Of a stretch of 64,000 nt of DNA, positions 46,351 to 63,318 are shown piece by piece. The stretch is from sequence record ON568341.1. One strand, 5' to 3'. Position 1 is the stretch's first letter; every line of letters begins with the position of its first letter. The DNA is from Escherichia phage UE-S1. The translations under genes were made by a program, and so were the position numbers. The notes below the pieces were generated by a model, which was given only the letters and a program-made list of their open reading frames with translations, had not been told where the DNA came from and searched no databases.

Positions 46351-46387
46351 AACTAAAATCTCCATATAATAATTATAATGTATTTAC

Positions 46388-46420
46388 AAAAAAATACCAG
46401 CACATATTTCAGTACTGGTA
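46388..46420 (-). terminator. inter-cassette hairpin plus T-run
   Basis: TACCAG..AGTACTGGTA stem with T7 on minus strand. Confidence 0.5.
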
Positions 46421-46425
46421 TAATG

Positions 46426-47607
46426 TTATGGTAAAATAATAGCTTGTAACGAACTCATACCCAATGTTGGAACACTCGCCTGTGGTGCTGGAGAATTCAA
46501 TTTTGGTGATGAAACCGCATATGACATTCCTGAACCCAAATCTGGATCAAAAACTACAGCACAATAATTCCCACTATATATAAGTCCATTCTTGTATCCT
46601 TGTGCACTTTGAATGCATTTCGTGAACGTACCAATATCTGTAGTGGCATTTATTAAGTTCCTCCCACGATAACCGCAGGTGTATATGAAATTATCATCGC
46701 CTATGTACATACTAGAATCCCCAGAAGAACTACATAGATACGACATATAAGCACGCATGTTTTTAGGAGCAACTGACAATGTACCTGCATAGAATTTATT
46801 ATTCGAACCCGTAATATTACCATCACCCAATGCACCAAAACTTCCCCAGCCAGTACCGTAATATCTCTTATCACTCAAAAATATAATACAGTTGTTATTA
46901 CACATCTTGATTTGATATATCAATGAAGGATCAATCCCAGGGAATGATTCAGTGAATGTTAGAACAGCCGGATCAGTACTAGCATTACATTGATGATATG
47001 TATTAGTACCAGCGGACAAGATTGTTCCATTAGCTAACAGAATTCTCGCAGTACCAGTACCAGCAGTACAAGCAACTGCACTTCCTGCACTTCCGGTGTA
47101 TATTTGTCTGAAAGTAAAGAAACCAACAGTTTTACTTCCCTGCCCACTCCAACCAGTATTATCAACTCCACACGCCCATACTGAACCATCTTGCATGATC
47201 ATCATTACACCAAAGCGTTCTATTGAAATATAAACAATCTTCGTTGTATCAACTGCACTAAATCTAGAAGTTATATCAGTCCATACCTTAACACTTACCG
47301 CCGTCGCACTGGAAGTAGGATCTTCACCAGCTATCATTATCCTCCCATTGTTAGTAAGATACATTGTCTGACTATAACCAGTACTACAAAACTTAACACT
47401 ATCAGTCTCTGGAACTTTTAACCACTCGTTGTAACGTGTTACGTTAGTGTTATTACCTAACTGATAATAGTTATTCATCCCAGATACATATAACACACCA
47501 TCCTTTATTAAACTATAAGTCGCACTATAGTCACTACAGGTATAACGTGTACCCACAGGTGGCTCAACGACGTTCCCGTACTTAACCATTCTCCCAAAAG
47601 GTAACAT
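46426..47607 (-). CDS. RCC1-like beta-propeller protein with conserved N-terminus (array member 3)
   Basis: MLPFGRMVKYGNVVEP; repeats NNYYQLGNN, DNTGWSGQGS, GSFGALGDGN. Confidence 0.7.
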   Translation of the reverse strand: MLPFGRMVKYGNVVEPPVGTRYTCSDYSATYSLIKDGVLYVSGMNNYYQLGNNTNVTRYNEWLKVPETDSVKFCSTGYSQTMYLTNNGRIMIAGEDPTSSATAVSVKVWTDITSRFSAVDTTKIVYISIERFGVMMIMQDGSVWACGVDNTGWSGQGSKTVGFFTFRQIYTGSAGSAVACTAGTGTARILLANGTILSAGTNTYHQCNASTDPAVLTFTESFPGIDPSLIYQIKMCNNNCIIFLSDKRYYGTGWGSFGALGDGNITGSNNKFYAGTLSVAPKNMRAYMSYLCSSSGDSSMYIGDDNFIYTCGYRGRNLINATTDIGTFTKCIQSAQGYKNGLIYSGNYCAVVFDPDLGSGMSYAVSSPKLNSPAPQASVPTLGMSSLQAIILP

Positions 47608-47642
47608 AATAAAATCTCCGTAATTAAATTATATAGTATTTA

Positions 47643-47676
47643 CAAAAAATACCAGTACATATTTCAGTACTGACCT
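47643..47676 (-). terminator. inter-cassette hairpin plus T-run
   Basis: CAGTAC-loop-GTACTG palindrome with T-run. Confidence 0.5.
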
Positions 47677-47680
47677 ATTA

Positions 47681-48802
47681 TTAAAAGGGCAACGGTAACT
47701 CAGTAAAAGTACTTACGTCCGGTAAACCATACATTAAATTAGCATCACCACAGTAATACCACTTCGTAGAATCATGTACCACCGATAAACGCTGTGCACA
47801 TAACACTTCCTGTATGTCATTAAACACCATCGGGACTAACTCATATGTATCTGCAAATGAAGATTCACTACCACTCGCATGAAAAGTATTTGTCCCAGCA
47901 TAAAATAACTGATTAGTGTTCTTACCCACAGCAAATGTTATCAAAACCCCATCATTCTCCCATAAAGAAGAAAACTTATCAACACTACCAGAAAGCTCTG
48001 TGTAAGTACTCGTAATGGCACTCGCCGCCGCCGCATTACCCATCTGTTTATTCAAGTTCTGTCCAGCAATAAAATATCTCGTTCGTGCACTAGAATCAGT
48101 ATATAATAACCCAGTGTTCGTAGTCATCATTCCAATGTCCTTAATCGTCATATCAGTCTGTGAATAACTTAGATACGAAGTTAAATTAACATTATTACCC
48201 AACGAACCGTTAGAACTCATGCCACAACGATGTAATATACCACTTGTATCAACGTAGATAGTACTAACTAAACTCGTATACAACTCTTGTACATTATTCG
48301 CAATAAACACAGCAGTCGCCTTATTACTAACCCCACCAAATGATAGGTTATTATCAAATCCCTTAGCGTATAATTGATTATTAGTAGTCAATAATCCAAT
48401 CGTGTAATAAGACATTTTCATATCCCTTACTGTACTCAAATCTACTGCCCCAAATTGATACGTAACATCTGTCCATTTGAAAATCTGTGCACTACCAACA
48501 CCACCCGTTTCAAACCATTTGTCACCACAGTACAATATGCGATTATCCTTAGTAAAGATAACTGTTAACAATCCACTACCACACGCAAACTTTACATCAC
48601 TTCTAACCTTCGTCCAATCAAGTACATAGGTAGTGGTGTTATTACCTATACCTAACTTGCCATAACGGTTATAACCACGCACCCATAAATCACCACTCTT
48701 AGTAATTAATAGTAATGCGTCTCCTGTACTTATTATTCGAAATCCCGAACTAGGATCAGGGGCAATATTCCCGTACTTAACCATTCTCCCAAAAGGTAAC
48801 AT
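47681..48802 (-). CDS. RCC1-like beta-propeller protein with conserved N-terminus (array member 2)
   Basis: MLPFGRMVKYGNIAPDP; repeats GYNRYGKLGIGNN, SSNGSLGNN. Confidence 0.7.
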   Translation of the reverse strand: MLPFGRMVKYGNIAPDPSSGFRIISTGDALLLITKSGDLWVRGYNRYGKLGIGNNTTTYVLDWTKVRSDVKFACGSGLLTVIFTKDNRILYCGDKWFETGGVGSAQIFKWTDVTYQFGAVDLSTVRDMKMSYYTIGLLTTNNQLYAKGFDNNLSFGGVSNKATAVFIANNVQELYTSLVSTIYVDTSGILHRCGMSSNGSLGNNVNLTSYLSYSQTDMTIKDIGMMTTNTGLLYTDSSARTRYFIAGQNLNKQMGNAAAASAITSTYTELSGSVDKFSSLWENDGVLITFAVGKNTNQLFYAGTNTFHASGSESSFADTYELVPMVFNDIQEVLCAQRLSVVHDSTKWYYCGDANLMYGLPDVSTFTELPLPF

Positions 48803-48837
48803 ATTTTCCTCCTTTATTCATTATACTATATTTAATA

Positions 48838-48869
48838 CAAAAAGAAATGCCAGTATCAAGTACTGGCAT
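48838..48869 (-). terminator. inter-cassette hairpin plus T-run
   Basis: ATGCCAGTA-TCAAG-TACTGGCAT. Confidence 0.55.
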
Positions 48870-48875
48870 ATTAAT

Positions 48876-50024
48876 TCATTGTATAAATGACATATCTACT
48901 TCTGTATAATTAAGAACGTTCTGTCCAGAAATACCACCCATTACTACTATTGCAAGGCCACAATAATATAATTTTCCAGTATCCGTAAGTATAAGTGATC
49001 CAGATGGACTGCGTACCAAATCACACGAACTATTAAAAGAAGTATAAGAAGGAGTATAGGAGTACTGATTATTATTATTACCAACACCTAATTGCCCAAA
49101 CCCATTCGATCCAGAAGCATATAGAACTTCATCTGCTTTGACAATATGTGATGCCATGTTACCAACACAAGTATATAGAGTATAAACTCCTGAACTCAAT
49201 AATGTCGGAGTTTTATATTGTATATCTGTAGATGTAGAAGTACCACCTGTACCAAATTCGTTCCCATATTGTGCACCGAACTGTTTGCCACAAGCGTACA
49301 AATTATTATCCGATTTGATAAAAAATGTACTCTGATAACTTACATTAAAATCTATAACATCCGAAGAAATCATCGTCACCCCAGTAATAGAAGTTTGATT
49401 ACCCGTGCCCAACTGGTAGTAATAGTTAAAACCACAACCCCATAAAGTATTATCTTCTCGCAAATAAATGTTACCAACTGCCTTTTTAACCGAAGTTATA
49501 GTATCTACTCTTTTGAATGTGTTAAAAGAATTAATGTTTGTACCATCACCAAATGATGATATGTTCGATATATTGTTAACTCCACAACAATACAATGTAC
49601 CATCTTTTGTTATCAAATTCACCTTCATATCATAAAAACTACTCATGTATTTTATATCAGAAACATTAACACCACTTGATGTTATCCACGTAGTACAGTC
49701 CGTCCACAAAGTTTTTCTATCAGTTACACCAGTGAATGCCTTCGTGTTACCAGTGATAAAAACTTTTCCAGTACCTTTCTCTTCATACAATTGACAATCA
49801 CTACTGTTATCTTCCAATAGAACTCGTTTAACATTCTCCGCACAAAGAATAAATTTACTCGATGCTACACCTGTACCAGTACCCCAATTCGTCGCAGAAG
49901 ATGCATACAACTTATCAGTATAAGTATCATGAAGATACATAGAATCACTGGAATATATTTTAAAACGCCCTTCTTTCTCAGGTATAATATTCCCGTACTT
50001 AACCATTCTCCCAAAAGGTAACAT
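48876..50024 (-). CDS. RCC1-like beta-propeller protein with conserved N-terminus (array member 1, most upstream)
   Basis: MLPFGRMVKYGNIIPE; repeats GFNYYYQLGTGN, GSNGFGQLGVGNN. Confidence 0.7.
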   Translation of the reverse strand: MLPFGRMVKYGNIIPEKEGRFKIYSSDSMYLHDTYTDKLYASSATNWGTGTGVASSKFILCAENVKRVLLEDNSSDCQLYEEKGTGKVFITGNTKAFTGVTDRKTLWTDCTTWITSSGVNVSDIKYMSSFYDMKVNLITKDGTLYCCGVNNISNISSFGDGTNINSFNTFKRVDTITSVKKAVGNIYLREDNTLWGCGFNYYYQLGTGNQTSITGVTMISSDVIDFNVSYQSTFFIKSDNNLYACGKQFGAQYGNEFGTGGTSTSTDIQYKTPTLLSSGVYTLYTCVGNMASHIVKADEVLYASGSNGFGQLGVGNNNNQYSYTPSYTSFNSSCDLVRSPSGSLILTDTGKLYYCGLAIVVMGGISGQNVLNYTEVDMSFIQ

Positions 50025-51386: not shown

Positions 51387-52046
51387 ATGAAACTTAATGC
51401 ACACAGCAAACAATACCTTAAGCACTTTAAGTACCTCAACAGTATTCAAGCAGAATCTTTTACACCAGCATATACGTATCACCCTAATGTACTAAAGAAA
51501 CGAAATAAAAAGAAAAAATCCAGAAATGTTCTCGTATCTAAGAACCTCAAATCGTACTTGAAGAAAAATAATATAGCTCTTGCTTTTATTAATATCTATA
51601 ATACTGATTTAAAAGTATTGAGTACTAATACCAGCACAAAAGCACTAAAGAATGCATCTATCTATATACACATGGATAATATCCCGTGCACTATAATTCT
51701 ATCTTCCGGGAATGTATACTTCTTCGGGAATTGTAATAGCACCCATGATATCAGTACTGCACAATTCCAAATCGGAGATATGTACTGCATGGGTTCAGAA
51801 AAAATACACGATAATATGCACTTCTTCCAAAAGCAACGTACTAACGAAACTGATACAGTACTGCAATTCCTCAAAGAACTAGAACACAAAGAATTATCCG
51901 AGGAAGAAGAATTCATGTACAGTACTGTAATCGATAATCCAGGACTCTATAAAAACGCGTACAAACTAACAAAACATGTACAGGAACTTATCAGTACTGA
52001 TAAGAAAATTCATCACCTCATTACGTATATTTCAAACTATGTATAA
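51387..52046 (+). CDS. hypothetical protein (219 aa) within family C array
   Basis: Track ORF; basic N-terminal region. Confidence 0.5.
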   Translation: MKLNAHSKQYLKHFKYLNSIQAESFTPAYTYHPNVLKKRNKKKKSRNVLVSKNLKSYLKKNNIALAFINIYNTDLKVLSTNTSTKALKNASIYIHMDNIPCTIILSSGNVYFFGNCNSTHDISTAQFQIGDMYCMGSEKIHDNMHFFQKQRTNETDTVLQFLKELEHKELSEEEEFMYSTVIDNPGLYKNAYKLTKHVQELISTDKKIHHLITYISNYV

Positions 52047-52221
52047 AGAATACTACATAGAGAAACTCCCAATGCATCTACAACACCATATACCAAACGT
52101 TGCATTGGGCATAACCGAGCACGCAAAGATAATGTTCCAACAATGTACTAAGTACACGCTCATATACGATGATAATCCATATATGCTGTACTACGTAGTA
52201 ATGCTAACATTCAGGTACTAA
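52039..52221 (+). CDS. small protein, family C
   Basis: Track ORF trimmed; MYKEYYIEKLPMHL ... TFRY; ATGTATAA overlap. Confidence 0.55.
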   Translation: MYKEYYIEKLPMHLQHHIPNVALGITEHAKIMFQQCTKYTLIYDDNPYMLYYVVMLTFRY

Positions 52222-52222
52222 T

Positions 52223-52402
52223 ATGAATACTTATAAAGAATTCTACCTCTCGTACCTTAATTCCGATATAGTAACATCCAATACATTCAGTACTAAAATT
52301 ATCTATAATGAAGTAATGAAAGAATGTATTAAAGGTGCTATTAACCCTAAAGATACGTATGACTTGTACTATGCAGTACTAACCCTTGTTTTCACGAAAT
52401 AA
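52223..52402 (+). CDS. small protein, family C (59 aa, below track cut-off)
   Basis: TACTAATATGAATA junction; MNTYKEFYLSYL. Confidence 0.5.
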   Translation: MNTYKEFYLSYLNSDIVTSNTFSTKIIYNEVMKECIKGAINPKDTYDLYYAVLTLVFTK

Positions 52403-52410
52403 CACATAAT

Positions 52411-52602
52411 ATGAATAACCACAAAGAATACTACATAGAGAAACTCCCAATGTATCTCCAACACCTTCTACCAACAGAACCATTGCGTATAGAAAAAAAC
52501 TACGAAAAAGACTACTTCATTCAGTGCACTAAATCCTCGATATATATTGAAGACTATAATCGAGTACTGTATCACATCCTTTTACTAATATATAAGTACT
52601 AA
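52411..52602 (+). CDS. small protein, family C
   Basis: MNNHKEYYIEKLPMYL ... LLLIYKY. Confidence 0.55.
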   Translation: MNNHKEYYIEKLPMYLQHLLPTEPLRIEKNYEKDYFIQCTKSSIYIEDYNRVLYHILLLIYKY

Positions 52603-52603
52603 T

Positions 52604-52792
52604 ATGAATAACCACAAAGAATACTACACACAATTTCTCCCCAGCATTTTGGAACAATACGCCAGATATAAAGTCCCCCTCGATAACGATTTGGCAGTAC
52701 TGGGATTCAATAACTGCATAGAACGAAGTATAGAAAATAGTAATAGCTATGAACAATTATATAACACTATCCTACTTATATTCAGGTACTAA
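52604..52792 (+). CDS. small protein, family C
   Basis: MNNHKEYYTQFLP ... LLIFRY; TAATATG coupling. Confidence 0.55.
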   Translation: MNNHKEYYTQFLPSILEQYARYKVPLDNDLAVLGFNNCIERSIENSNSYEQLYNTILLIFRY

Positions 52793-52793
52793 T

Positions 52794-52982
52794 ATGTATA
52801 AAGAATACTACGCAAAATATTTCCCAATGTATCTCAGAACTAATCTATTAGATAAACCTCGCGATATCAATGCACAAAACGATAAAGTGTACTTTATTAT
52901 GTGCACTAAAGCATGTATACTAGATCATGACAGCTACCATCGAGTACTGTATCATACACTGTACCTAGCTTTCGTATACTAA
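52794..52982 (+). CDS. small protein, family C
   Basis: Track ORF trimmed; MYKEYYAKYFPMYL ... LAFVY. Confidence 0.55.
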   Translation: MYKEYYAKYFPMYLRTNLLDKPRDINAQNDKVYFIMCTKACILDHDSYHRVLYHTLYLAFVY

Positions 52983-52983
52983 A

Positions 52984-53042
52984 ATGTACTCCGGTTTAAT
53001 AGGACTAATATTCTTCTATGAATAATCATAAAGATTTCTACA
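52984..53042 (+). repeat. 59-bp near-identical direct repeat of 50728-50786 (gene-junction duplication)
   Basis: ATGTACTC(A/C)GGTTTAATAGGACTAATATTCTTCTATGAATAATCATAAAGATTTCTA present twice. Confidence 0.8.
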
Positions 53043-53197
53043 TAAGCCATCTGGATATAAACTCCCAAATGCTTATACTACTAAACACAATAGATTTCAA
53101 GGATAAGAAAAAGATCCAACAATTCATTGACCATACGGACCGTGCTGTGAACCAAAATTATATGTACTACATTCTCGCCCTAATATACAGGTACTAA
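53018..53197 (+). CDS. small protein, family C (59 aa, below track cut-off)
   Basis: MNNHKDFYISHL ... LALIYRY; preceded by duplicated junction. Confidence 0.5.
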   Translation: MNNHKDFYISHLDINSQMLILLNTIDFKDKKKIQQFIDHTDRAVNQNYMYYILALIYRY

Positions 53198-53198
53198 T

Positions 53199-53384
53199 AT
53201 GCATAGAGAATACTATATACAATTTGTTAAAGAAAACTACAAACACGCCGTCCCCGTAAACCCTTTAAATTCTAATGACCCAAGTACTATATTCTTGTTC
53301 CATGACGCAATACGTACAGTACTCAATACTAAAGATGAACAAGTGCAGTACGTATTCTTACTTTTACTTATATACAGACACTAA
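53199..53384 (+). CDS. small protein, family C
   Basis: MHREYYIQFV ... LLLIYRH. Confidence 0.55.
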   Translation: MHREYYIQFVKENYKHAVPVNPLNSNDPSTIFLFHDAIRTVLNTKDEQVQYVFLLLLIYRH

Positions 53385-53397
53385 AGCACTAACTAAT

Positions 53398-53598
53398 ATG
53401 AATAAAGAATATAAAGACTTCTATATAAGTAAACTAAAAGAAAATGAACAAGCATGGATTCAACCACTAATAATACTTCCATTTAATAGATATTCATTGA
53501 ACCGATGTACCGAGATTGCTATAGACCCTTGTCCTATTAAAGAGAATGTACAATACAATCAGTACTACTATATCTTAATGCTTATATATAGGAAGTAA
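53398..53598 (+). CDS. small protein, family C
   Basis: Track ORF trimmed; MNKEYKDFYISKL ... LMLIYRK. Confidence 0.55.
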   Translation: MNKEYKDFYISKLKENEQAWIQPLIILPFNRYSLNRCTEIAIDPCPIKENVQYNQYYYILMLIYRK

Positions 53599-54285
53599 TT
53601 AAACACATATAGACAGGGGAAGCTCCGTAGTGGAAGCATTATACAGGCTTTAACATATGTTGCATATGTTAAAATTCAGCCTGGACAAATGCGATCACTA
53701 GGATTCTCCCCAGGCTAAACCCCGTAACTCTACAGAGAAGCCAATAGCTTCTCTTTGTCATAGGTAGTCATAAGTAATCATATATAAACATTTAAGTAAT
53801 CATTCATACGCACGGTAGTGATTAGTATTGAGTACTAGAGTACAGGAATGTTCACGTTTAATCAAGAACGTAGCAGTACTGCCCCAAAAGTATTCAGTAC
53901 TGAAGGTGTCGATATCCCACTAAGTAGGCAGAGGAAGTCTGCCGTACTTTGTAGTTTCCAAGCTCCTTTTCCATTTTTCAAATTACATCAAATGTATTCA
54001 AAAGTAATCACGTAATGATTAGTACTGAATTATTACTTTCACCTTAATTCCAAATACTCTTTTACCCTTCGGGGAAAATCCCATTACCCCTTGAGGCTCC
54101 AGCAAAAAGTTGGAAAGTACTCCATCGTAAATCTGGATCGTAAAAATTTTGGAGTACCTATGAAATAAAAGTTGGATCTTCGAAAGTTGAAATTTACGTT
54201 GGGACATATAGGATTGATGGGATATAATGAGTTTTGTAGAGATACAGATTATACGATTTCAGTACTGAATAATGAAAGAAAGCTA

Positions 54286-54313
54286 TTGACTTTATGATTC
54301 AGTACTGTATAAT
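54286..54313 (+). promoter_or_regulatory. sigma-70-type promoter (TTGACT-16-TATAAT) with no downstream ORF
   Basis: TTGACTTTATGATTCAGTACTGTATAAT inside ORF-free region. Confidence 0.5.
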
Positions 54314-54689
54314 GTTCTATATAGAGAGATGAGTTGCCGCAAACAATTCATTCACTCTACCTCCTGTCGTGAGACAGTACAGAAAAGATAGTTCCTCCTA
54401 TGGGTGGTACATCTTTTTATAACCTCTTTTTTCGTAATATAAACAGTACTGATATTAACAGAATGGTGTCAGTACTGATTTTAATCTAATACAATACACC
54501 CACCAGCTTGTGCTGGTGGATTATCCACTAACAGTATTCAGTACTACATGATAGTCTTCATCCTCCTAGGGTAACATAGTGAGGGCTATTGTGGGAGTAC
54601 TGAATACTCCTTTCACAAGATAGATCTATGGTATAGTACTGACGGATTTTGGGCGTAGTAAGCCTAGGTTAAATTTAGACGTAGAGATG

Positions 54690-54835
54690 TCTAGACCTCC
54701 AGATGGTTGGAAGTAAAGATGGCTATCCCTCTAGGCGGCTGGATGGCTAGATTTCTAGATGGCTGTACTGCTAGACGTTTGGACGGCTAAACGGCTAGAT
54801 GGTTACACGTCTGGAAGTATAGACGGCTAAATCAA
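54690..54835. repeat. iteron-like cluster of short degenerate direct and inverted repeats
   Basis: Recurring CTAGATGG, GGCTAGAT and AGACGGCTAAA units. Confidence 0.6.
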
Positions 54836-55452
54836 AATTTTTATTCTGTTTTTTCCAATAGTTCCCCTACCGCGTGAGGATGTTTTTCCCCGCAGTATCT
54901 GGTGTTAGATTTTTCTGAATCTGGAATCATTATCTAATAAACTGGGGGCAATGTCAACGGCCTGGATGAATATTTTTAAAAAATAATCTAGTACTAAATT
55001 TTGGGCGTAACTATGCACCCGGTGGGCTTGAGTCTTTCTCGACTTGATGAAATAATTATATCAGTACTGGAAAAATAAAGCAATACCATGGAAGCAAAAA
55101 AGTTTTAATTAATTTGCTTGCTATCCTGGGCCGGACTATGGTACTATATTTCAGTACTGAGAAAGTGCGTTTACCTGCTAGGGTGCGGGAGTGTATCCTT
55201 TTTTTATATCTTGAATTTTGGGCGTAATTCCGCACCCTCTGGGGTTTCCGCTTTCTCGCGTCTATGTAGTAATTATACGCTTTTTTAGTACTGAGTCAAT
55301 AGCCAAAAACAAAATAATTGAAAATAATTTAACGCGTTTAAACGGCCTGTAAAGCCCTGAAATGATTAGAATGGTGCAAATGTATAGCTTAGGTGTATTA
55401 ATGCGTTAGAATGCGTCTGAGGCCGTTTTACGTGGTATAGGGATGATTTAGT

Positions 55453-55548
55453 GGATTGATTCAGTACTGAATAATAGTACTCCTATATAGAAAGATAGTT
55501 CCCCTGGATTGATTCAGTACTGAATAATAGTACTCCTATATAGAAAGA
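55453..55548 (+). repeat. tandem direct repeat (~43-bp unit, 2 copies, period ~53)
   Basis: GGATTGATTCAGTACTGAATAATAGTACTCCTATATAGAAAGA twice. Confidence 0.8.
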
Positions 55549-55579
55549 AAACTATTTTAAAAGTATTTGTAGAAAGTAC

Positions 55580-55607
55580 TTGCACAGTACTGAAAAAAGC
55601 GTATAAT
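55580..55607 (+). promoter_or_regulatory. early-type sigma-70 promoter (TTGCAC-16-TATAAT) followed by 5-prime stem-loop 55624-55636
   Basis: Conserved AGTACTTGCA..GCGTATAATGTTTTACATC module then GGGAA-CAC-TTCCC. Confidence 0.6.
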
Positions 55608-55661
55608 GTTTTACATCGAGAGCGGGAACACTTCCCTACTCACTTTTAAGAGATTAAAACG

Positions 55662-56024
55662 ATGGCGACTCAAATCACTAAAATCATTGCTAACCTGGTT
55701 AACTTCCGCGACGATATGAAAGATCTTCCGGCGGCAACGGTTAAAACTCACATTGACGCATACCGCGAACTGATTAAAATGTTGCCGCTTAAGCGTGAAC
55801 AATACGCCGCTAAACTGATGCTTGATGCGATGATCCATAAGATGATCGCCAGTGATTTGACGATGGTTTATCAGTATATGGGCGAAAATTTCGCGGTGTA
55901 TAGTAAACCAGTACCAGGAATGGAAAGTACAGAAGTATTACACGGTTTAAATTTAAAACAAGATGCATGGGATAATATGCCTCGTTTCCTGGTATGGGCT
56001 GACAGTGGCAAAATTTACGAATAA
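55662..56024 (+). CDS. hypothetical protein (120 aa)
   Basis: Track ORF; own promoter and 5-prime hairpin. Confidence 0.6.
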   Translation: MATQITKIIANLVNFRDDMKDLPAATVKTHIDAYRELIKMLPLKREQYAAKLMLDAMIHKMIASDLTMVYQYMGENFAVYSKPVPGMESTEVLHGLNLKQDAWDNMPRFLVWADSGKIYE

Positions 56025-56037
56025 GTTAAAAATTAGT

Positions 56038-56065
56038 TTGACAGTACTGAATAAAAGCGTATAAT
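56038..56065 (+). promoter_or_regulatory. early-type promoter (TTGACA-16-TATAAT) followed by stem-loop 56078-56096
   Basis: TTGACAGTACTGAATAAAAGCGTATAAT then GTGGGGAA-TAG-TTCCCCAC. Confidence 0.6.
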
Positions 56066-56116
56066 GTTTTACATCAGGTGGGGAATAGTTCCCCACTATA
56101 TAAGAGGATTAAAAAA

Positions 56117-56356
56117 ATGGCTAAATCAAAAATGTTCTTAGGTCACAAAAACAAAACTCATTGGAATGTAAGCCTGTGGATTAATAACGATGAGGGATTG
56201 TATCGGTTGGCCCTGGACTTTATTGCCGCCCATACTAATCGCAATGATGCGGCCCGTCATATGATGTTATTTTTAGAACAGACTGGACAAGATAAAACAC
56301 CGGACGGATTCAAATATAGCACTACTGCGATCCGTGCGGCGATGGTTGGAATGTAA
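56117..56356 (+). CDS. hypothetical protein, paralogue of 58157-58396
   Basis: Track ORF trimmed to ATG after AGAGGA; conserved GHKNKTHWNVSLWINN and PDGFKYSTTAIRAAMVGM. Confidence 0.55.
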   Translation: MAKSKMFLGHKNKTHWNVSLWINNDEGLYRLALDFIAAHTNRNDAARHMMLFLEQTGQDKTPDGFKYSTTAIRAAMVGM

Positions 56357-56442
56357 TAGAATTTATTTAAAGTACTATCATTTTTTTGCGATAGTACTTT
56401 ATAATAGTGTTTTATTCATACACCAACGATAAGGGCAACAGC

Positions 56443-56709
56443 ATGAATATTAAGTATTTTGCGACGCGTGAACAAGCTCGGATCGCCGCACGCCAGGACG
56501 GGGCAACGTTTAAAGATATGGGCGTACAATCGGAACGTGGTAAACGTTGGGCCATTGTAAAGCGTAGTACCGCCAGATCATTACAGTACTGGTTAGCGGC
56601 CTTAAAAAGTCCCGATAGTGTATCGCGTCGAGTGGTAGAAATAAAGCTCGACCGAAAGGGCAACCGCGTGACTGTGTACCGTACTAAAAAGATTGCAGTA
56701 CTTGAATAA
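56443..56709 (+). CDS. hypothetical protein
   Basis: Track ORF trimmed to ATG at MNIKYFATRE. Confidence 0.45.
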   Translation: MNIKYFATREQARIAARQDGATFKDMGVQSERGKRWAIVKRSTARSLQYWLAALKSPDSVSRRVVEIKLDRKGNRVTVYRTKKIAVLE

Positions 56710-56716
56710 AAAGTAC

Positions 56717-56744
56717 TTGCAAACTATGTTTAAAGGCGTATAAT
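56717..56744 (+). promoter_or_regulatory. early-type promoter (TTGCAA-16-TATAAT) followed by stem-loop 56759-56775
   Basis: TTGCAAACTATGTTTAAAGGCGTATAAT then GCGGGAA-CTC-TTCCCGC. Confidence 0.6.
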
Positions 56745-56796
56745 GTTTTACATCGAGAGCGGGAACTCTTCCCGCCTATAACCTGGAGTAATAAAA

Positions 56797-57027
56797 ATGA
56801 CTAATATGTATATGACTGAAGTTAAAACCGTAAAAGATACTACCACGAATAAAACTACTTACTTACAGCGGATCTGTGGTGTATGGCAACGTATCAGCAA
56901 ATCAAAGTACTTTAAATTAACATCATATGCAAACCGTTCGGATTCATTCAGTACTGAAATAAAAGGTAATAAAGTACACCAATACGGCACTTATTATTAT
57001 TACAGCCTGGACGCGATTGCAGTATAA
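56797..57027 (+). CDS. hypothetical protein (76 aa)
   Basis: Track ORF after promoter, hairpin and GGAG RBS. Confidence 0.55.
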   Translation: MTNMYMTEVKTVKDTTTNKTTYLQRICGVWQRISKSKYFKLTSYANRSDSFSTEIKGNKVHQYGTYYYYSLDAIAV

Positions 57028-57278
57028 TCATATTTTTTGAAAAATTTACAATTGCCGGTATTGACTTATTTTGTCAGTACTGGCATAATGTATTCATTGG
57101 CAGATAAGCCGTAGCCCATAGGGTGCGGGAGTGTATCTATAGAAAAATTAGTTTAGTATAGTTACAATTGTGCACCCGGTGGGTTAGCTGTTGTCATGGG
57201 GTATATTATGCCAGTACTTGATAATGCTGTCAATACTTTTTTTACTATTCAGTACTGAAAACTATTTTTAAAAAGTAC

Positions 57279-57306
57279 TTGCTAACTATGTTTAAAGGCG
57301 TATAAT
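57279..57306 (+). promoter_or_regulatory. early-type promoter (TTGCTA-16-TATAAT) with stem-loop but no ORF
   Basis: Promoter and ACGGGG..CCCCGT hairpin with no ATG before the next promoter. Confidence 0.5.
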
Positions 57307-57394
57307 GTTTTACATCAGGACGGGGAACGAAATAAGTAACCCCGTTAAGTAGTCCAGGAGTAAGACATACGAAAAACTCCCCTGATAAAATAGT

Positions 57395-57422
57395 TTGACA
57401 AATGTTTTTAAAAGCGTATAAT
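57395..57422 (+). promoter_or_regulatory. early-type promoter (TTGACA-16-TATAAT)
   Basis: TTGACAAATGTTTTTAAAAGCGTATAAT upstream of 57455 gene. Confidence 0.6.
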
Positions 57423-57454
57423 ACTTACATCAACTACTGAATGAGGGTTACAAA

Positions 57455-58066
57455 ATGAAAACTATCACTACTACTACTTTTGTTATGGCTTTTTCTGAAC
57501 TGAACGCAGAACAAAAAACGGCGGCTATCGAACTGGTTCGGGATCGTGAGCGTTCATGTGAGGATAATTTCTTTGCTGAGGGCGTTATCGAGTACTATAA
57601 AGAAACAGTACTACCAGAATACGGCATAGATGAAGCTGAATTGCAATACAGTGGTTTTTGGTCGCAAGGTGACGGTGCATCAATCAGTACTGACAGCGTG
57701 GACGCGGAGAAGTTTTTACGCAAGATTAAAGCGTTAACGAAATATCGTTCTATCCGTCACTTGTTGAATGAAGATGATTTGGCAATGAGTGTAGAACGTT
57801 CACACTCTCGCTACGCACACGAAAACACGGTAAGCGGTTGCGTTGATACTCGCTACACTGATTTAACTGTAAAACAAGCGGCACTTGCTGATGACCTGGA
57901 AAACTTACTGACTGATGCGATCCGTGAATTATCTCGTAAGTTGTACCGTGATTTAGAGAATGCATATGAGGATCAATTCACTACTGAAAACATTACTGCA
58001 CTGATTGAGGGTAACGAATATCAATTCAATGTTATTGATGGCGTAGTGGAATCAATCGAATATTAA
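57455..58066 (+). CDS. acidic hypothetical protein (203 aa)
   Basis: Track ORF with GAGGG RBS; D/E-rich. Confidence 0.6.
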   Translation: MKTITTTTFVMAFSELNAEQKTAAIELVRDRERSCEDNFFAEGVIEYYKETVLPEYGIDEAELQYSGFWSQGDGASISTDSVDAEKFLRKIKALTKYRSIRHLLNEDDLAMSVERSHSRYAHENTVSGCVDTRYTDLTVKQAALADDLENLLTDAIRELSRKLYRDLENAYEDQFTTENITALIEGNEYQFNVIDGVVESIEY

Positions 58067-58156
58067 TTCAAAAAGTACTTGTAAACTAAGTTTAAAAGCG
58101 TATAATACTTTACATCAAGGCGGGGAGTGGTTCCCCGCTCAAACGAGGATTTAAAA

Positions 58157-58396
58157 ATGGCTAGTACTAAAACTTACAACGGACACAAAAACAAAACTCA
58201 TTGGAATGTAAGCCTTTGGATTAATAACGGTGAGTCATTGTATCGGCTTGCACAAAGTTGCATCGCACAAAGTAGAACTAAAGATATTGCTGCGGAATGT
58301 ATGTACCGCAGATTAAAAGCCAACGGTACTACTACAACACCGGACGGATTCAAATATAGCACTACTGCGATCCGTGCTGCAATGGTTGGAATGTAA
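58157..58396 (+). CDS. hypothetical protein, paralogue of 56117-56356
   Basis: Track ORF trimmed to ATG after GAGGA; conserved N- and C-terminal blocks. Confidence 0.55.
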   Translation: MASTKTYNGHKNKTHWNVSLWINNGESLYRLAQSCIAQSRTKDIAAECMYRRLKANGTTTTPDGFKYSTTAIRAAMVGM

Positions 58397-58453
58397 TATT
58401 CAGTACTGAGATAATGGCGGGTAATAGTTCCCGCCTTTACTGAGGGTTATCTA

Positions 58454-58714
58454 ATGAGTAAAGTAATTAGCTATACAGCACTAAGCAAGACATTATCTAT
58501 TAGCCAGTGCACCGATGGTTATTGGCTATTTGATGAAACGCGTGGCATGAATTTAGCCATGCGTGCAAAAACTGCTGAGGCGGCGTATCTTGAAGCATTG
58601 GAATACTACCAGGAACGTTTAAAGGAAGTAGAAGAAGATTATAAAAGCCTCAAAGCGAAAGTAGATCATTTCGTCGGTCAATTCATCGAGGAAGACGACG
58701 ACAAACAATATTGA
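58454..58714 (+). CDS. hypothetical protein (86 aa)
   Basis: Track ORF after GCGGG..CCCGCC hairpin and GAGGG RBS. Confidence 0.55.
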   Translation: MSKVISYTALSKTLSISQCTDGYWLFDETRGMNLAMRAKTAEAAYLEALEYYQERLKEVEEDYKSLKAKVDHFVGQFIEEDDDKQY

Positions 58715-58800
58715 AAAAGTACTTGCAATTAGTTTTCAGTACTGTATAATGGTTTACATCAAAGGGAGAAATGGTTCTCCCTGGTAATGAGGAAAATAAA

Positions 58801-59022
58801 ATGGCTAATATCACTACTCTTTCCCAACTGGAAGCACTGGTGAAATCTATGCGGGAACATGCCGACAAAATCGGCGTACAAGATCCAGCCGTTTGCTTCT
58901 GCGACGAATTGAATGATGATACACTGGTAATAGCAGAAGTCCAGGACGTTTCTAACTATTCCTCGCGTTACACTGGCGGCGTAGCAAATAAAGGCGACTT
59001 CTGTTTATACCTTACAAAATAA
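58801..59022 (+). CDS. hypothetical protein
   Basis: Track ORF trimmed to ATG after promoter, GGGAGAAATGGTTCTCCC hairpin and GAGGAAAA RBS. Confidence 0.55.
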   Translation: MANITTLSQLEALVKSMREHADKIGVQDPAVCFCDELNDDTLVIAEVQDVSNYSSRYTGGVANKGDFCLYLTK

Positions 59023-59265
59023 CAACGCGGGGAGATAATAACTCCCCGTTACTTTTTCAGTACTGAATCATTTAATAGACGGATCTCGGCACCCGGTGGG
59101 TTAGTGACTGTTTCGTCTTGATGTAGTAATTATGCCAGTACTGGATGCACTTGTCAACAACTATTTTTCAAATACTTTTTATTAAAATACTTGCAATTAG
59201 TTTTTAAACGCGTATAATGTTTTGCATAGGGGGAGCGGTTCCCCTGGTAACTAAGGAATAAGAAA

Positions 59266-59502
59266 ATGCTCGAACAAATCAAATCAACGTCTGCGAATGT
59301 AACGGGAACTGTATCACACTTTACTAGTGATGAATCGCGTGGTGTTCCTTATTGTGCTGTACATGTAAACACTGATGGCAACTACTGGTTTACGGTTTAC
59401 GGATCATATTCATTTGGTCGGCCAGGACATCAAAAAATCCTGGATAAAGTACAGCCAACGGGTAAAAATATCACTGCTGAAATGTTTTATAAAAAATCAT
59501 AA
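59266..59502 (+). CDS. hypothetical protein (78 aa)
   Basis: Promoter, GGGGGAGCGGTTCCCC hairpin, AAGGAA RBS. Confidence 0.55.
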   Translation: MLEQIKSTSANVTGTVSHFTSDESRGVPYCAVHVNTDGNYWFTVYGSYSFGRPGHQKILDKVQPTGKNITAEMFYKKS

Positions 59503-59586
59503 AGTACTTGATAATAGTTTTTAGTACTGTATAATATTTTACATCGCAAGGGGGAGCGGTTCCCCCTGGTAACTAAGGATAATAAA

Positions 59587-59886
59587 ATGAAAATTGCAAT
59601 CATCGCCCTGGCTTTATCTGTTTCCTCTTTCGCTGTTAATGCGTCATTAGATGTAAGTAGTGAAAAATTCATTCAGTGCACTGTTGCAATGACCGATGAA
59701 AGTACTGGCGAGATTGTATTAAAGGATTTAGAGATCCAGCCGGAAGCATTTAAAAACGGCCCGTTCCATGAAGAAGACGAAAACGGTAGCACATCAATTT
59801 ATTATGATGCCAGTACTAAACGCGGTTCGGTCACTGTAATGGATACTGAGAAAGTAACGCATACCGGCGTTATTAATTGCCGTTGA
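59587..59886 (+). CDS. secreted small protein (signal peptide)
   Basis: MKIAIIALALSVSSFAVNA; promoter and hairpin upstream. Confidence 0.6.
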   Translation: MKIAIIALALSVSSFAVNASLDVSSEKFIQCTVAMTDESTGEIVLKDLEIQPEAFKNGPFHEEDENGSTSIYYDASTKRGSVTVMDTEKVTHTGVINCR

Positions 59887-59907
59887 TAGATACTACGGGG
59901 TAACATC

Positions 59908-60138
59908 ATGACTAAGCGAATTGTTTTACTTAACGAAAGCAGTACTACACAACTACTTAACGCCGTGCATTATGATATTGAAACGAGCGTTAATCTTATC
60001 AGTACTGTAGTACTGTTGGACACTGGAAAGGTCGCCAATGATAAAGCGATTGCAGGTATATTAACGGATCTTGAGCCTGGTAGCAGTGCACCAATAACGT
60101 TAAATGGTAAAGTGTTTAATATTTTACTCACTGATTAA
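59908..60138 (+). CDS. hypothetical protein (76 aa)
   Basis: Track ORF followed by terminator. Confidence 0.5.
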   Translation: MTKRIVLLNESSTTQLLNAVHYDIETSVNLISTVVLLDTGKVANDKAIAGILTDLEPGSSAPITLNGKVFNILLTD

Positions 60139-60144
60139 GTACAT

Positions 60145-60166
60145 AGCCCACCTGGTGGGCTTTTTT
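60145..60166 (+). terminator. intrinsic terminator
   Basis: AGCCCAC-CTG-GTGGGCT plus T6. Confidence 0.7.
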
Positions 60167-60371
60167 GTTTTTGTAGTATCGTAGTACTGAGATACTTTGA
60201 AAATAGTTTTAAGAAAGTAGTTGACATTACCGCAGAAAAGCGTAGAATGTATTACATCAAGACGGGGAGCACTAAGTAGACCGCCAGTAAGTCGAACGAA
60301 AAACTGGACACGTCGAGAAAACTTTGATACACTAATAAACGTAAACTAAACTTTAATTGAGGATTTATAAA

Positions 60372-60854
60372 ATGGCTAATGTAAAATCATTTCTGAAAGC
60401 ACTGATTTCTAACGACACTGCTATTGCGGCTGAATTGCTGGCGGATCTGGATAGCGATACCATGAAAGCAGTACGCAACAATTTTAACATTGCGTACAGT
60501 GAAGCTAAAGAACTGCAAGCCAAAAAGATAGCAGAACTGGAAGAACAGAAAAAAGCCCGTGAAGAAGAACTACAAGCAACGATTGAAAGTATTCAGGCGG
60601 CGGTTGCAGGGTTGGATCTGGAAGTAGTTATTGAAATGGCACATAAAGCACTGGCAGTTAAGTACGGGGAAGATAAGCCAGTAACTAAACCTAAAAAATG
60701 GATTCAGGAACGCGTAACGGTTGTTCTTGATAATGGCGAGGAACATTTAATTCCCGTGCGTGGTAACTGCATTGCGGTAGTTCTGGATGCTATCAAAGAA
60801 AGCGGATTGACTCGCGAGGAATGGATCGAAGCTCACCGCAAAATTGAAGCATAA
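60372..60854 (+). CDS. hypothetical protein (predicted coiled coil)
   Basis: Track ORF trimmed to ATG after GAGGA; promoter TTGACA..TAGAAT upstream. Confidence 0.55.
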   Translation: MANVKSFLKALISNDTAIAAELLADLDSDTMKAVRNNFNIAYSEAKELQAKKIAELEEQKKAREEELQATIESIQAAVAGLDLEVVIEMAHKALAVKYGEDKPVTKPKKWIQERVTVVLDNGEEHLIPVRGNCIAVVLDAIKESGLTREEWIEAHRKIEA

Positions 60855-60875
60855 CAATTAAAGTACTGAATCACT

Positions 60876-60902
60876 AGCCCACTTCTTATAGTGGGCTTTT
60901 TT
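60876..60902 (+). terminator. intrinsic terminator
   Basis: AGCCCAC-TTCTTATA-GTGGGCT plus T6. Confidence 0.65.
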
Positions 60903-61129
60903 GTGTTTATCGTTTACCAGTCCACTAGCACCGCCTAGAATCGATTCTAACGCATTAAACTGATTATCTGATGAATAGCCCTAGCTGGTGGCGTTAATGC
61001 CGTTAGAAAGCGATTGAGGACGTTTAAAGTATTTTGCAAAAAGTAATAAAAAGTACTTGCACGATTAAGAGATTAGAGTATAATTAATTACATCAAGACA
61101 AGACACCTTAACTAACTGAGGATATAAAG

Positions 61130-61282
61130 ATGAATACTTATGAACTGGATTGTTTCACTTTACAAGTAATGTCAGTATGCAGTAAAAAAGATTGGTCATC
61201 AAAGGAATTTAAAGCAGTTATTGCGTGTGCAAAACACGGCAAGACTATCAATGAAACGGCATCAATCATTGATAAACTTTAA
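61130..61282 (+). CDS. hypothetical small protein (50 aa, below track cut-off)
   Basis: ATG after GAGGATATAAAG; own promoter upstream. Confidence 0.45.
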   Translation: MNTYELDCFTLQVMSVCSKKDWSSKEFKAVIACAKHGKTINETASIIDKL

Positions 61283-61290
61283 AAAATAGT

Positions 61291-61319
61291 TTGACAATAG
61301 TTTTAAGTACTGCGATAAT
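61291..61319 (+). promoter_or_regulatory. early-type promoter (TTGACA-17-GATAAT)
   Basis: TTGACAATAGTTTTAAGTACTGCGATAAT. Confidence 0.5.
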
Positions 61320-61354
61320 ACATACATCAACTACTGAATAGGAATAAAAAAACA

Positions 61355-61582
61355 ATGGCTATCATCATTACTTACGTATCTGGTACTACTGGCACTGCTT
61401 CAACTGTTGCTGTAATTACTAATAAGAAAGGAGCGGAATTACATTTTGCAATGGATAATTGGGCCGTGAAGGAGTTCGGACCGTGGGCAAGTGTAGCATA
61501 CATTGAAACCTATCAAGTGCCATCGATTAGCTTAACTGATTTAGGTGTAGATCGAATCTTATGCCTGGATGAATTAATTTAA
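61355..61582 (+). CDS. hypothetical protein (75 aa)
   Basis: Track ORF. Confidence 0.5.
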   Translation: MAIIITYVSGTTGTASTVAVITNKKGAELHFAMDNWAVKEFGPWASVAYIETYQVPSISLTDLGVDRILCLDELI

Positions 61583-61668
61583 AAAAGTACTTGCAAAGTA
61601 AATCGAATAAAGTATAATACATTACATCAAGGGGAGAAAATGGTTCTCCCCACTAAGAGGAAACTAAT

Positions 61669-61812
61669 ATGAAAACTTGTCAATGTGGTAAAAAATCTAT
61701 TACTGGTTTGAAACGGGGCGTTGCACTTTGCCAGTACCATTATAATTTACAAGTATGGGGTAAAGAATGGGCCGATCAAGTGGAAGCAATTAAGAAAGCA
61801 AAAAGTAAGTAA
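61669..61812 (+). CDS. Cys-rich small protein (47 aa), possible zinc ribbon
   Basis: MKTCQCGKK...ALCQYHYN; promoter, GGGGAGAAAATGGTTCTCCCC hairpin and AGAGGA RBS upstream. Confidence 0.45.
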   Translation: MKTCQCGKKSITGLKRGVALCQYHYNLQVWGKEWADQVEAIKKAKSK

Positions 61813-61893
61813 AAATATTATCACAGTACTATTGACATAGATTGATAGTACTGGCATAATAGATTTTATCAAGACAACTAAGAGGAAATTAAA

Positions 61894-62238
61894 ATGGCTA
61901 ACATCAATACTATAGCAGCACAAAATATTAACCTGTCTTCTGTTGAAGTTGTACACATTGCCGCCCGGCGTTGGTTCCAGGCGTCTTATGGTAATACTTA
62001 TTTCTCTTTAACGGTAGATGTTGAAATCAATGGCGAATTTATTGAAGTAGTAAACGTGCCGTTCCAATATGGCTACGGGGATCATTTTGACACTGTAGCA
62101 ATGGAAGAATTTAGCAAGGTTATTAATATGGAAGGTAAAGAGTTTTTACGCGGTTCTTATCTTTCCCGTTTTTGCCGTGATAATAATATTACTGTTTATA
62201 GTTCTGTTAGTGATGTTAAACGCAAAAAAGATCTTTAA
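61894..62238 (+). CDS. hypothetical protein (114 aa)
   Basis: Track ORF; promoter TTGACA..CATAAT upstream, AGAGGA RBS. Confidence 0.55.
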   Translation: MANINTIAAQNINLSSVEVVHIAARRWFQASYGNTYFSLTVDVEINGEFIEVVNVPFQYGYGDHFDTVAMEEFSKVINMEGKEFLRGSYLSRFCRDNNITVYSSVSDVKRKKDL

Positions 62239-62318
62239 TTAGCTTTACTTTATGCAGATACTTTGATATAGTGTCTGCATAGGGGAAAGAAATTAAATCA
62301 ACTTAAGAGGATAGTAAA

Positions 62319-62588
62319 ATGAAAAATATCAGTACTTTAATCGATGCAGGCACACATGTTCGTCGGTCTATGGTTGCAACCAGTTCTACAAAACAAGTAG
62401 CGAGCGGTTATCTTGTATTTGTGCACGATGGAAAACTCCTGGAACGTTCAATCAATTTTGATGTTAAAAACAATTGCCGTTTTATTATCTTTAAGCGTGA
62501 GCAATATAAAATTGATTTACCAGCAAAGCCCATTAGTGGGGCGTACAACGTGCAATCATTGTTTGAGCGTCAACCATACACCTATTAA
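62319..62588 (+). CDS. hypothetical protein (89 aa)
   Basis: Track ORF after hairpin and AGAGGA RBS. Confidence 0.55.
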   Translation: MKNISTLIDAGTHVRRSMVATSSTKQVASGYLVFVHDGKLLERSINFDVKNNCRFIIFKREQYKIDLPAKPISGAYNVQSLFERQPYTY

Positions 62589-62639
62589 TCAAAACAACGT
62601 TAGCGGTCGATTTAGGCCGCTTATACTGGGGATTATATA

Positions 62640-62810
62640 ATGAATACTAATCAAGTACTGAACGAGATTGAAAGCATCATTAAACCGATGAAGCGTACTG
62701 ATGCAATGTTAACACCGGAAGAATGCCGCTTATATGAGCGTTACAGCGTCGAACAAGTCCAGGCAATGGCCCGTATCCGTCCGGTTGCCAGTACTGATAA
62801 GGCGGCGTAA
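62640..62810 (+). CDS. hypothetical small protein (56 aa, below track cut-off)
   Basis: ATG after GGGG; followed by TAATATG-coupled next gene. Confidence 0.4.
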   Translation: MNTNQVLNEIESIIKPMKRTDAMLTPEECRLYERYSVEQVQAMARIRPVASTDKAA

Positions 62811-62811
62811 T

Positions 62812-63021
62812 ATGCTTACTGTACAGGATAAGATCGACATCTTAAAGGTTAATATGTATGTGATTGATGCCGTACCTGGTAAAGTATTTGCATACGATGA
62901 CACCACTGTAAGCAATTTCTACTATAGCCAGGACGTGGGGGATCTTTCTGTACAGTCGGTTATTGAAAATGTAGTTAATGCAGCGTATGAGCATTTACTT
63001 TCAAATAGTACTTGCAATTAG
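62812..63021 (+). CDS. hypothetical protein
   Basis: Track ORF 62734 trimmed to ATG coupled to upstream stop. Confidence 0.45.
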   Translation: MLTVQDKIDILKVNMYVIDAVPGKVFAYDDTTVSNFYYSQDVGDLSVQSVIENVVNAAYEHLLSNSTCN

Positions 63022-63090
63022 TTTTCAGTACTGTATAATGTTTTACATGAAGGGGAGAAATAGTACTCCCCACTAATTAAGGAATATGAA

Positions 63091-63237
63091 ATGAAAGCAT
63101 CAAAAAAGAGTAATACTAAGAAAGCATGTTCACCTTTCGCTGGGGTATTCCCTTTACGTTTCGTTGATGAAGTGGTTTCCTACCCGCCGGGCCTTACTCC
63201 TGAGATGGTAGAAAGTTTGCGTAAATCTAAAAAATAA
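63091..63237 (+). CDS. hypothetical small protein (48 aa, below track cut-off)
   Basis: Promoter, GGGGAGAAATAGTACTCCCC hairpin and AAGGAA RBS upstream. Confidence 0.45.
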   Translation: MKASKKSNTKKACSPFAGVFPLRFVDEVVSYPPGLTPEMVESLRKSKK

Positions 63238-63318
63238 TACTTGCAATTAGTTTTTAGTACTGTATAATGTTTTACATGAAGGGGAGAAATGATTCTCCCC
63301 AAGAACAGGAGAAACAAA

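Follow-up and report, generated by a model that had tools for sequence, protein, structure and literature searches.

Escherichia phage UE-S1 (sequence record ON568341.1) carries a near-consensus promoter without any gene directly behind it, in the 64,000-nucleotide stretch of DNA that was analysed and is called the window hereafter. The question raised by this locus is whether the promoter makes a small RNA, as a preliminary description had proposed. This proposal is supported by the class to which the promoter belongs, the lack of a conserved reading frame, a three-hairpin fold maintained by compensatory changes and the presence of a unit boundary behind the fold. We put at roughly 0.55 the probability that the locus specifies a stand-alone, early small non-coding RNA, which would be synthesized by the host polymerase, stopped by hairpins and active in trans.

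The left genome end and its early promoters

The window originates from an Asteriusvirus, a 121Q/PBECO4-like jumbo coliphage with a 350-kb genome, and its ORF-poor 2 kb (53600-55660) match about 40 Asteriusvirus jumbo coliphages with 85-95% identity (121Q, PBECO4, phAPEC6, G17 and others). The Rak2/121Q-like jumbo phages possess a terminal repeat of ~21 kb with dozens of tiny early genes. The base aligned to window position 53923 is the first base in three records (fEgEco12, vB_Ec-M-J and BF17). In vB_Ec-M-J the direct terminal repeat is annotated at 1-21525, and for fEgEco12, whose ends were confirmed with PhageTerm and by restriction digestion, the repeat measures 20,993 bp (PMC13070987). 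Since the ends of these relatives align at 53923, positions 1-53922 are the right part of the unique genome, and the terminal repeat is represented by its first 10 kb, positions 53923-64000. The promoter starts 364 nt inside this physical left end, and a second copy of it is present in the right-hand repeat copy. The first gene downstream is found at 55662 and no conserved gene lies between the promoter and this position, the ORF-free end region of 1.7 kb being highly conserved throughout. The features of the end and of the promoter are the following:

53923-53943 (no strand): left physical terminus of the virion DNA, where the direct terminal repeat of ~21 kb starts, as deduced from the record starts of relatives
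54260-54267 (no strand): upstream CAGTACTG site, inverted repeat with the spacer site
54286-54313 (+): sigma-70-type promoter, whose spacer holds CAGTACTG at 54300-54307, abutting the -10 hexamer
54319-54321 (+): predicted transcription start, from the standard sigma-70 spacing (6-8 nt past the -10 hexamer)

Several other elements were observed around the repeat boundary and elsewhere in the window. A small hairpin, GGCAGA-GGAAG-TCTGCC, begins 5 nt inside the left end, and the segment 54100-54200, in which AAGTTGRA is repeated three times and GTACTCCA/TGGAGTAC form an inverted repeat, is among the most conserved stretches of the end (0.91-0.98). Just before the boundary, 51976-53598 is occupied by about nine tandem paralogous genes of ~60 aa (M-N-x-[HY]-K-E-[YF]-Y ... 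L-[IL]-[FY]-[RK]-Y), the copy number of which varies among relatives; the last one is followed, just outside the repeat, by an imperfect hairpin of ~97 nt (53616-53712) with a meaningless microRNA as sole Rfam match (E = 0.61). At the other extremity of the window, ARAGORN reported at 71-145 a tRNA whose anticodon has four bases (tcat) and to which no amino acid was assigned, and four ordinary tRNAs lie at 2918-4849.

The promoter given in the preliminary description is indeed present, with TTGACT at 54286-54291, a 16-nt spacer and TATAAT at 54308-54313 (11/12 match). In AT-rich DNA such a site could be a chance match from which nothing is transcribed, and about five sites of at least 11/12 are expected in 64 kb (5.2 ± 2.3 in 30 dinucleotide shuffles of the window), with a mild enrichment only when the consensus scan is carried out at the 9/12 level (49 vs 37). 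At the 11/12 level, however, the window contains 37 sites (31 on the + strand and 6 on the - strand), a 7-fold enrichment biased to the gene strand. The site at 54286-54313 also bears the extras of the early promoters, with CAGTACTG just ahead of the -10 hexamer and GTTYTAYAT in the start region, and it is near-invariant among relatives that are otherwise 68-90% identical. It is kept in 18/18 aligned relatives, mostly with a perfect TTGACA, and EJP2, ~68% identical across the region, retains it; the mean identity amounts to 0.98 over 54300-54319 and to 0.87-0.98 for the promoter overall. A fortuitous match is consequently regarded as very improbable.

The window contains 53 copies of the palindrome CAGTACTG (extended form ATTCAGTACTGAAT) for 0.75 expected, most densely spaced between 53874 and 55592. 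In the early promoters, AGTACT adjoins the -10 hexamer and often the -35 hexamer too; at 54286-54313 the upstream and spacer copies form a 17-nt inverted repeat, the arms of which flank the -35 hexamer. This pattern suggests a phage-specific DNA-binding factor. About 20 early promoters are found in the terminal repeat and the one studied here is the first strong promoter inside the left end. Two further observations concern this family: within ~10 nt after many early promoters a GC hairpin with an (A)ATAGTT loop is encountered (56078-56097, 58411-58432, 63045-63065 and others), and ATAGTTCC is present five times in the window, always on the + strand and within 54388-58424.

Coding content and folding of the downstream stretch

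Neither a start codon nor an RBS had been recognized behind the promoter in the preliminary description. The statement is correct for the RBS and has to be amended for the start codon, as ATG codons exist at 54329 (20 codons) and 54400 (29 codons), neither of them with a Shine-Dalgarno sequence. The ATG at 54329 is missing in Turkey5, JNE01 and EJP2, the differences among close relatives in this frame are all non-synonymous, and most relatives have a 1-nt indel that interrupts the frame opened at 54400. Because both ORFs are devoid of a Shine-Dalgarno sequence and destroyed in relatives, the stretch downstream of the promoter is judged, on its sequence, to be non-coding in substance. A micro-protein could be encoded by one of these two ORFs or by a 19-codon ORF on the - strand, the ATG of which is preceded at 8 nt by AGGAGG. 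But the latter Shine-Dalgarno sequence and its ORF are missing in Turkey5 and JNE01 and, in a six-frame translation, no frame of either strand stays open across the five lineages, so that a micro-protein appears extremely improbable. No tRNA or tmRNA was detected in the region.

Folding of the predicted transcript, a check that the preliminary description had put forward, yielded three hairpins with an MFE of -30 kcal/mol (z = -2.67):

54322-54359 (+): hairpin H1, 5'-terminal interrupted stem of 14 pairs with the 7-nt loop CCGCAAA (CYGCRAA in relatives)
54359-54365 (+): ACCUCCU linker, same as the anti-Shine-Dalgarno core of the 16S rRNA 3' end
54364-54377 (+): hairpin H2, 5-bp stem with a GUGA (GNRA) tetraloop
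54382-54418 (+): hairpin H3, long imperfect stem around a core of CCUCC/GGUGG, the 3' arm running into U5 (54414-54418)

With a fourth hairpin (H4, see below) included, the fold reached z = -4.24; the single-sequence fold of the reverse strand was weaker (z = -1.74). A covariance model was built from four close sequences and used for the alignment of ten distinct sequences belonging to 4-5 lineages. Standard pairs made up 94.4% of the cells, vs 87.7% in shuffled alignments and 40-50% when the partners were slid by 1-3 columns, and eight pairs were changed on both sides vs 3.4 in shuffles and 0-3 after sliding; as the alignment was fitted to the structure model, the paired fraction is inflated, and the counts come from these 4-5 lineages only. 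Double compensatory changes affect four of the nine inner pairs of H1, the sequence of which varies accordingly (mean identity to the window of 0.77-0.79), and three pairs of H3 (0.74-0.86). H2 is the most conserved part of the RNA, with an identity of 0.98 and 100% of the cells paired; in Turkey5 and JNE01 one of its C-G pairs is replaced by A-U, a double change. In the alignment of the ten sequences, G·U cells outnumber A·C cells by 34 to 1, and the + strand is therefore the folding strand. Just past H3, over 54420-54439, the identity falls to 0.44, as expected at the boundary of a unit.

The promoter could also be active with a functionless product, the hairpins and the conservation corresponding to DNA signals (sites for the CAGTACTG factor, packaging or end-processing) or the promoter simply soaking up RNA polymerase. 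AGTACT-type motifs are indeed scattered throughout the region, and H2 has a similar sequence in its 3' arm (ACAGTACAGA); among the hairpins described below, H4 consists of two copies of a DNA motif and the loop of H5 flips its orientation, as in a DNA palindrome. Moreover the whole 1.7-kb ORF-free region is conserved, beyond the RNA, and part of the constraint could act on DNA, which counts against the RNA reading. On the other hand, compensatory double changes preserve the pairing in H1, H2 and H3, and in Turkey5 and JNE01 the helix of H2 is kept though the CAGTAC-like sequence is destroyed. The 34:1 ratio is strand-specific, a bias that double-stranded DNA signals would not yield. These data make an exclusively DNA-level explanation quite unlikely.

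The small-RNA reading was also confronted with known families and with wider sequence collections. Rfam gave no match in 54314-54440 when 4 kb were scanned at E ≤ 1, and over 261 nt at E ≤ 10 its best matches, located over H4 and H5, scored 15-21 bits vs thresholds of 56-90. In neither of these two scans was the gathering threshold of a known RNA family reached (Rfam including pRNA, 6S and known phage sRNAs). No paralogue of the RNA was detected within the window by BLAST or with the covariance model. Exact-pattern scans of IMG/VR and of the JGI metagenomes recovered only 121Q itself, plus chance matches in unrelated coding DNA; these collections supplied no more diverse homologues and the covariation thus rests on GenBank phages only. 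Together with the class and conservation of the promoter and the lack of a coding frame, the covarying structure and its strand constitute the computational support for the small RNA.

Possible 3' ends and proposed action of the RNA

The transcript had been proposed to end in a T-rich tract about 110 nt from the promoter. This tract, CTTTTTATAACCTCTTTTTTCG at 54413-54434, exists, but it is not conserved as a transcript end: the first T5 (54414-54418) is common to close relatives only, the second T6 is confined to the window and phage A4, and the U-run after H3 is missing in A4, Turkey5, JNE01 and EJP2. With its imperfect AU-rich lower stem and non-conserved U-run, H3 is a poor terminator, was left unflagged by a simple terminator scan and can be considered as a weak candidate for an intrinsic terminator. 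Three elements follow:

54419-54443 (+): variable spacer with the second T-run (54427-54432), two unrelated haplotypes among relatives
54444-54487 (+): hairpin H4 (stem-loop 54444-54477), two CAGUACUG copies plus 6 pairs (3 G·U), then AUUUUAAUCU
54498-54521 (no strand): hairpin H5, CCACCAGC-TTGT-GCTGGTGG, formed by two E. coli Chi sites in inverted orientation

H4 is terminator-like by the scan, adds about -17.8 kcal/mol to the fold and is conserved at 0.90-0.94. It is the most likely conserved stop, because its counterpart in Alcyoneusvirus keeps the stem despite an indel in the loop. H5 is a strong GC hairpin without a U-run on the + strand, annotated as a terminator in phage G17 (ARNOLD, -16.5), and it would be a possible third stop on the + strand as well as a predicted terminator for converging - strand transcripts. 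The length of ~110 nt is consequently not retained, the end at the T-tract not being conserved: the stop may be H4 (~54485) or H5 (~54525), corresponding to 165-205 nt, and the RNA would measure ~100, 165 or 205 nt, according to a stop at H3, H4 or H5.

The Chi arms of H5 (54500-54507 on the - strand and 54512-54519 on the + strand) are situated at ~580 bp from the left terminus of the DNA, and the copy on the - strand is oriented so as to be seen by RecBCD entering there. Among close relatives the loop alternates between TTGT and ACAA, and neither A4 nor EJP2 has kept the Chi arms. Chi (GCTGGTGG) occurs eight times in the window for 0.46 expected; four - strand copies are grouped within 520 bp (43274-43794) and others are listed at 12678 and 60984.

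The counterpart in the sister genus Alcyoneusvirus was analysed in Klebsiella phage Muenster, whose terminal repeat was defined by PhageTerm. A perfect TTGACA-17-TATAAT is located there on the gene strand, 271-299 nt from the left end, and no ORF is found until position 1304, i.e. ~1 kb past the promoter is ORF-free. About 250 nt further on, the promoter is followed, in this order, by a hairpin of the H1 type (GAGUUA-CUGCGAA-UAACUC), which shares its loop with 121Q, by ACCUCCU and by an AGUACUG-based hairpin then CUUUUAAUUU. The covariance model matches this module at the same place in Muenster and RaK2, weakly (12-14 bits, E = 0.16-0.35), and in both phages the CCUCCU motif adjoins the H1-like hairpin. 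Five Alcyoneusvirus genomes keep the module, a 19-nt indel being limited to the loop of the terminator, with the stem kept. This comparison draws attention to the H1 loop and to the CCUCCU tracts, putative features common to both genera. Earlier Klebsiella matches, taken as promoter homologues, were rejected: they concerned a generic promoter of the opposite strand, the true counterpart being on the gene strand.

The transcript, or the act of transcribing, could instead serve the genome end in cis, as a put-like antitermination leader, in origin activation or priming, or in DNA entry or recombination. This is compatible with a first strong promoter lying 364 nt from the end and aimed inward at a one-directional early-gene array, with a structured RNA directly behind it. 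Features of the end or origin type are close by (19 tandem 8-bp repeats at 54676-54828, the double Chi at 54500-54519 and very high conservation), near 54 kb the cumulative GC skew passes through a local minimum, and end or origin promoters have precedents in T7 phiOL/phiOR, the T4 origin promoters and ColE1 RNA II. Read-through is however unneeded, every early gene having its own strong promoter, including the gene at 55662, and it is opposed by three consensus-like - strand promoters (54957, ~55085 and 55299). Ahead of the 55662 gene, the + strand has no fewer than three hairpin/U elements (H3, H4 and 55180-55199 then T7). Because of the terminator-like 55180-55199 with its T7 and of the three opposing promoters, it is unlikely that the promoter at 54286-54313 serves this gene. 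As for an origin, the 8-bp repeats are unlike typical iterons and no DnaA box is conserved, the DnaA-box-like TTATCCACT at 54522-54530 being peculiar to the window. The switch in GC skew largely reflects gene orientation, the genes at 39-50 kb being on the - strand, and a replication origin near 54 kb was rejected on these grounds. We consider a role in cis as unlikely.

Some elements mentioned above deserve a description of their own. The negative GC skew at 40-50 kb is due to the - strand ORFs of 39481-50024, where eight back-to-back ORFs of ~375-395 aa and one of 245 aa are found, the similar lengths of which suggest paralogues. The array at 54676-54828, 750-900 bp from the end, comprises ~19 head-to-tail 8-bp units (consensus TAGAYGGC, conserved at 0.83-0.97) and could be bound by the terminase or another protein. 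The segment 55180-55207 (+) is a conserved, terminator-like hairpin then T7 in the ORF-free region and, combined with the weak extended -10 promoter of 55028-55056, it could delimit one more small transcript of the + strand. Consensus-like promoters directed against the early genes are located on the - strand at 54957-54929, ~55085-55057, 55299-55272, 57233-57205 and 59157-59129. Four of the five (not 54957) are followed by a related leader made of TACTACAT..., a small hairpin with a GAGAAA-type loop and CCCACCGGGTGC; the transcript from 59157 would end ~110 nt further on, at a good terminator (59048-59028). Taken as a group, these five units resemble a family of antisense or small RNAs.

For the stand-alone small RNA, we infer transcription, the position of the 3' end and action in trans as follows. 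After DNA entry, the host RNA polymerase with sigma-70 would initiate at the near-consensus promoter (54286-54313). The product would be an untranslated, highly structured RNA made of H1, the GNRA-capped H2 and the long H3, in which the 5'-terminal H1 should shield the 5' end. Transcription may stop partially at the U-run of H3 (~100 nt), or else at H4 (~165 nt) or H5 (~205 nt). The RNA would most likely be a regulator or titrator acting in trans early in infection, and the likely contact elements would be the exposed and conserved H1 loop CYGCRAA and the C/U-rich ACCUCCU/UCCUCCU tracts. No target complementarity of at least 13 nt was found in the 64-kb window. As regards host mimicry or long antisense pairing, no E. 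coli sequence matched in a 28-Gb database, at an E-value threshold too strict for short seeds, which it excludes. The literature searched contained no transcriptome or transcription study of an Asteriusvirus.

A more specific scheme would make the genome-end RNA of at least two jumbo-phage genera the first transcript after entry, whose CCUCCU tracts would act on Shine-Dalgarno sequences or ribosomes and favour phage translation. In the window, CCTCCT occurs nine times, three of which are within 54360-54567. GGAGG is present four times on the + strand of the 64 kb vs ~22 expected (an estimate from base frequencies), AGGAGG is absent from this strand, and the complement CCTCC is found 19 times. 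The CCUCCU tracts are partly unpaired only: in the fold, the first five nucleotides of the ACCUCCU linker are unpaired and the last two lie inside the stem of H2. The linker is absent at the same position in Turkey5 and JNE01. Because of this partial pairing and of the loss of one tract in these two phages, an anti-Shine-Dalgarno mechanism is considered as improbable.

If the small-RNA reading is true, the very first promoter inside the genome end produces an early-acting regulator invisible to gene callers, and this RNA is a testable handle on host take-over in a phage group under development for therapy. The comparison also defines a class of early promoters and locates the physical genome end, which aids the annotation of the whole group. 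The position at the start of the genome and the conservation across two genera raise the value of the RNA somewhat, and we regard it as a credible candidate phage small RNA.

Comparison with known systems

The nearest parallel is offered by PA5oct, a jumbo myovirus that belongs to the 121Q/RaK2 clade in the wider sense and whose long direct terminal repeat is packed with early genes. This Pseudomonas phage depends on the host RNA polymerase and, as seen by RNA-seq, its terminal repeat produces two abundant ORF-less RNAs, ncRNA001 and ncRNA002, which arise from ORF-free stretches inside the repeat and represent 2-5% of the phage reads (PMC7318152). They differ from the Asteriusvirus RNA by their position, 8 and 22 kb inside the repeat, by their size of 236-451 nt and by having no described promoter or structure. 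The covariance model found no match at E ≤ 10 in PA5oct 1-23000, and the resemblance is judged to be one of kind, not of homology.

T7 possesses orphan promoters at its genome ends, phiOL at ~nt 405 and phiOR near the right end, beside the early host-type promoters A1-A3. They are transcribed by the polymerase of the phage itself and have been connected with replication and with concatemer processing; to our knowledge they have no conserved RNA fold. The Asteriusvirus locus is similar in that its promoter is placed a few hundred bp inside the end (364 nt) of a genome whose terminal repeats are direct, is not immediately followed by a gene (the first at 55662) and has short-repeat arrays near it. 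In contrast with T7, this promoter is of the sigma-70 type, not that of a single-subunit phage polymerase, and the RNA fold covaries. Asteriusviruses are reported with a sigma factor, and no phage-encoded polymerase is listed for them (PMC7247149).

Like the pRNA of phi29, the Asteriusvirus RNA would be a structured non-coding RNA specified at the extreme left end of a linear genome by an early host-type promoter. It shows no match to the Rfam pRNA, and phi29-like phages have protein-primed DNA and a pRNA ring at the portal; nothing suggests a packaging role for the Asteriusvirus RNA. HK022 put and lambda nut/boxB also form stem-loops in a nascent RNA soon after an early promoter, ahead of terminators and of a one-directional early block. 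Here, however, no boxA-like sequence is present, three hairpins are found vs two in put, the genes further on are served by promoters of their own and read-through is opposed by converging ones.

ColE1 RNA I (~108 nt, three stem-loops) resembles the RNA by its size, its three-hairpin layout, its 7-nt loops and possibly the replication-related neighbouring DNA. RNA I is antisense to RNA II, which starts from an overlapping opposite promoter, whereas the fold described here is strand-specific by its G·U pairs. No promoter-like site is found on the - strand between 54320 and 54900; the nearest, at 54957-54929, is more than 500 nt off and its transcript is predicted to be stopped by H5, which lies between. 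Three attributes of the generic class of trans-acting small RNAs running from promoter to terminator are observed at the locus: a promoter of its own, no conserved ORF and a structure compensated in 4-5 lineages. The computational data thus support a family-specific addition to the early non-coding RNAs of phages, a kind already known.
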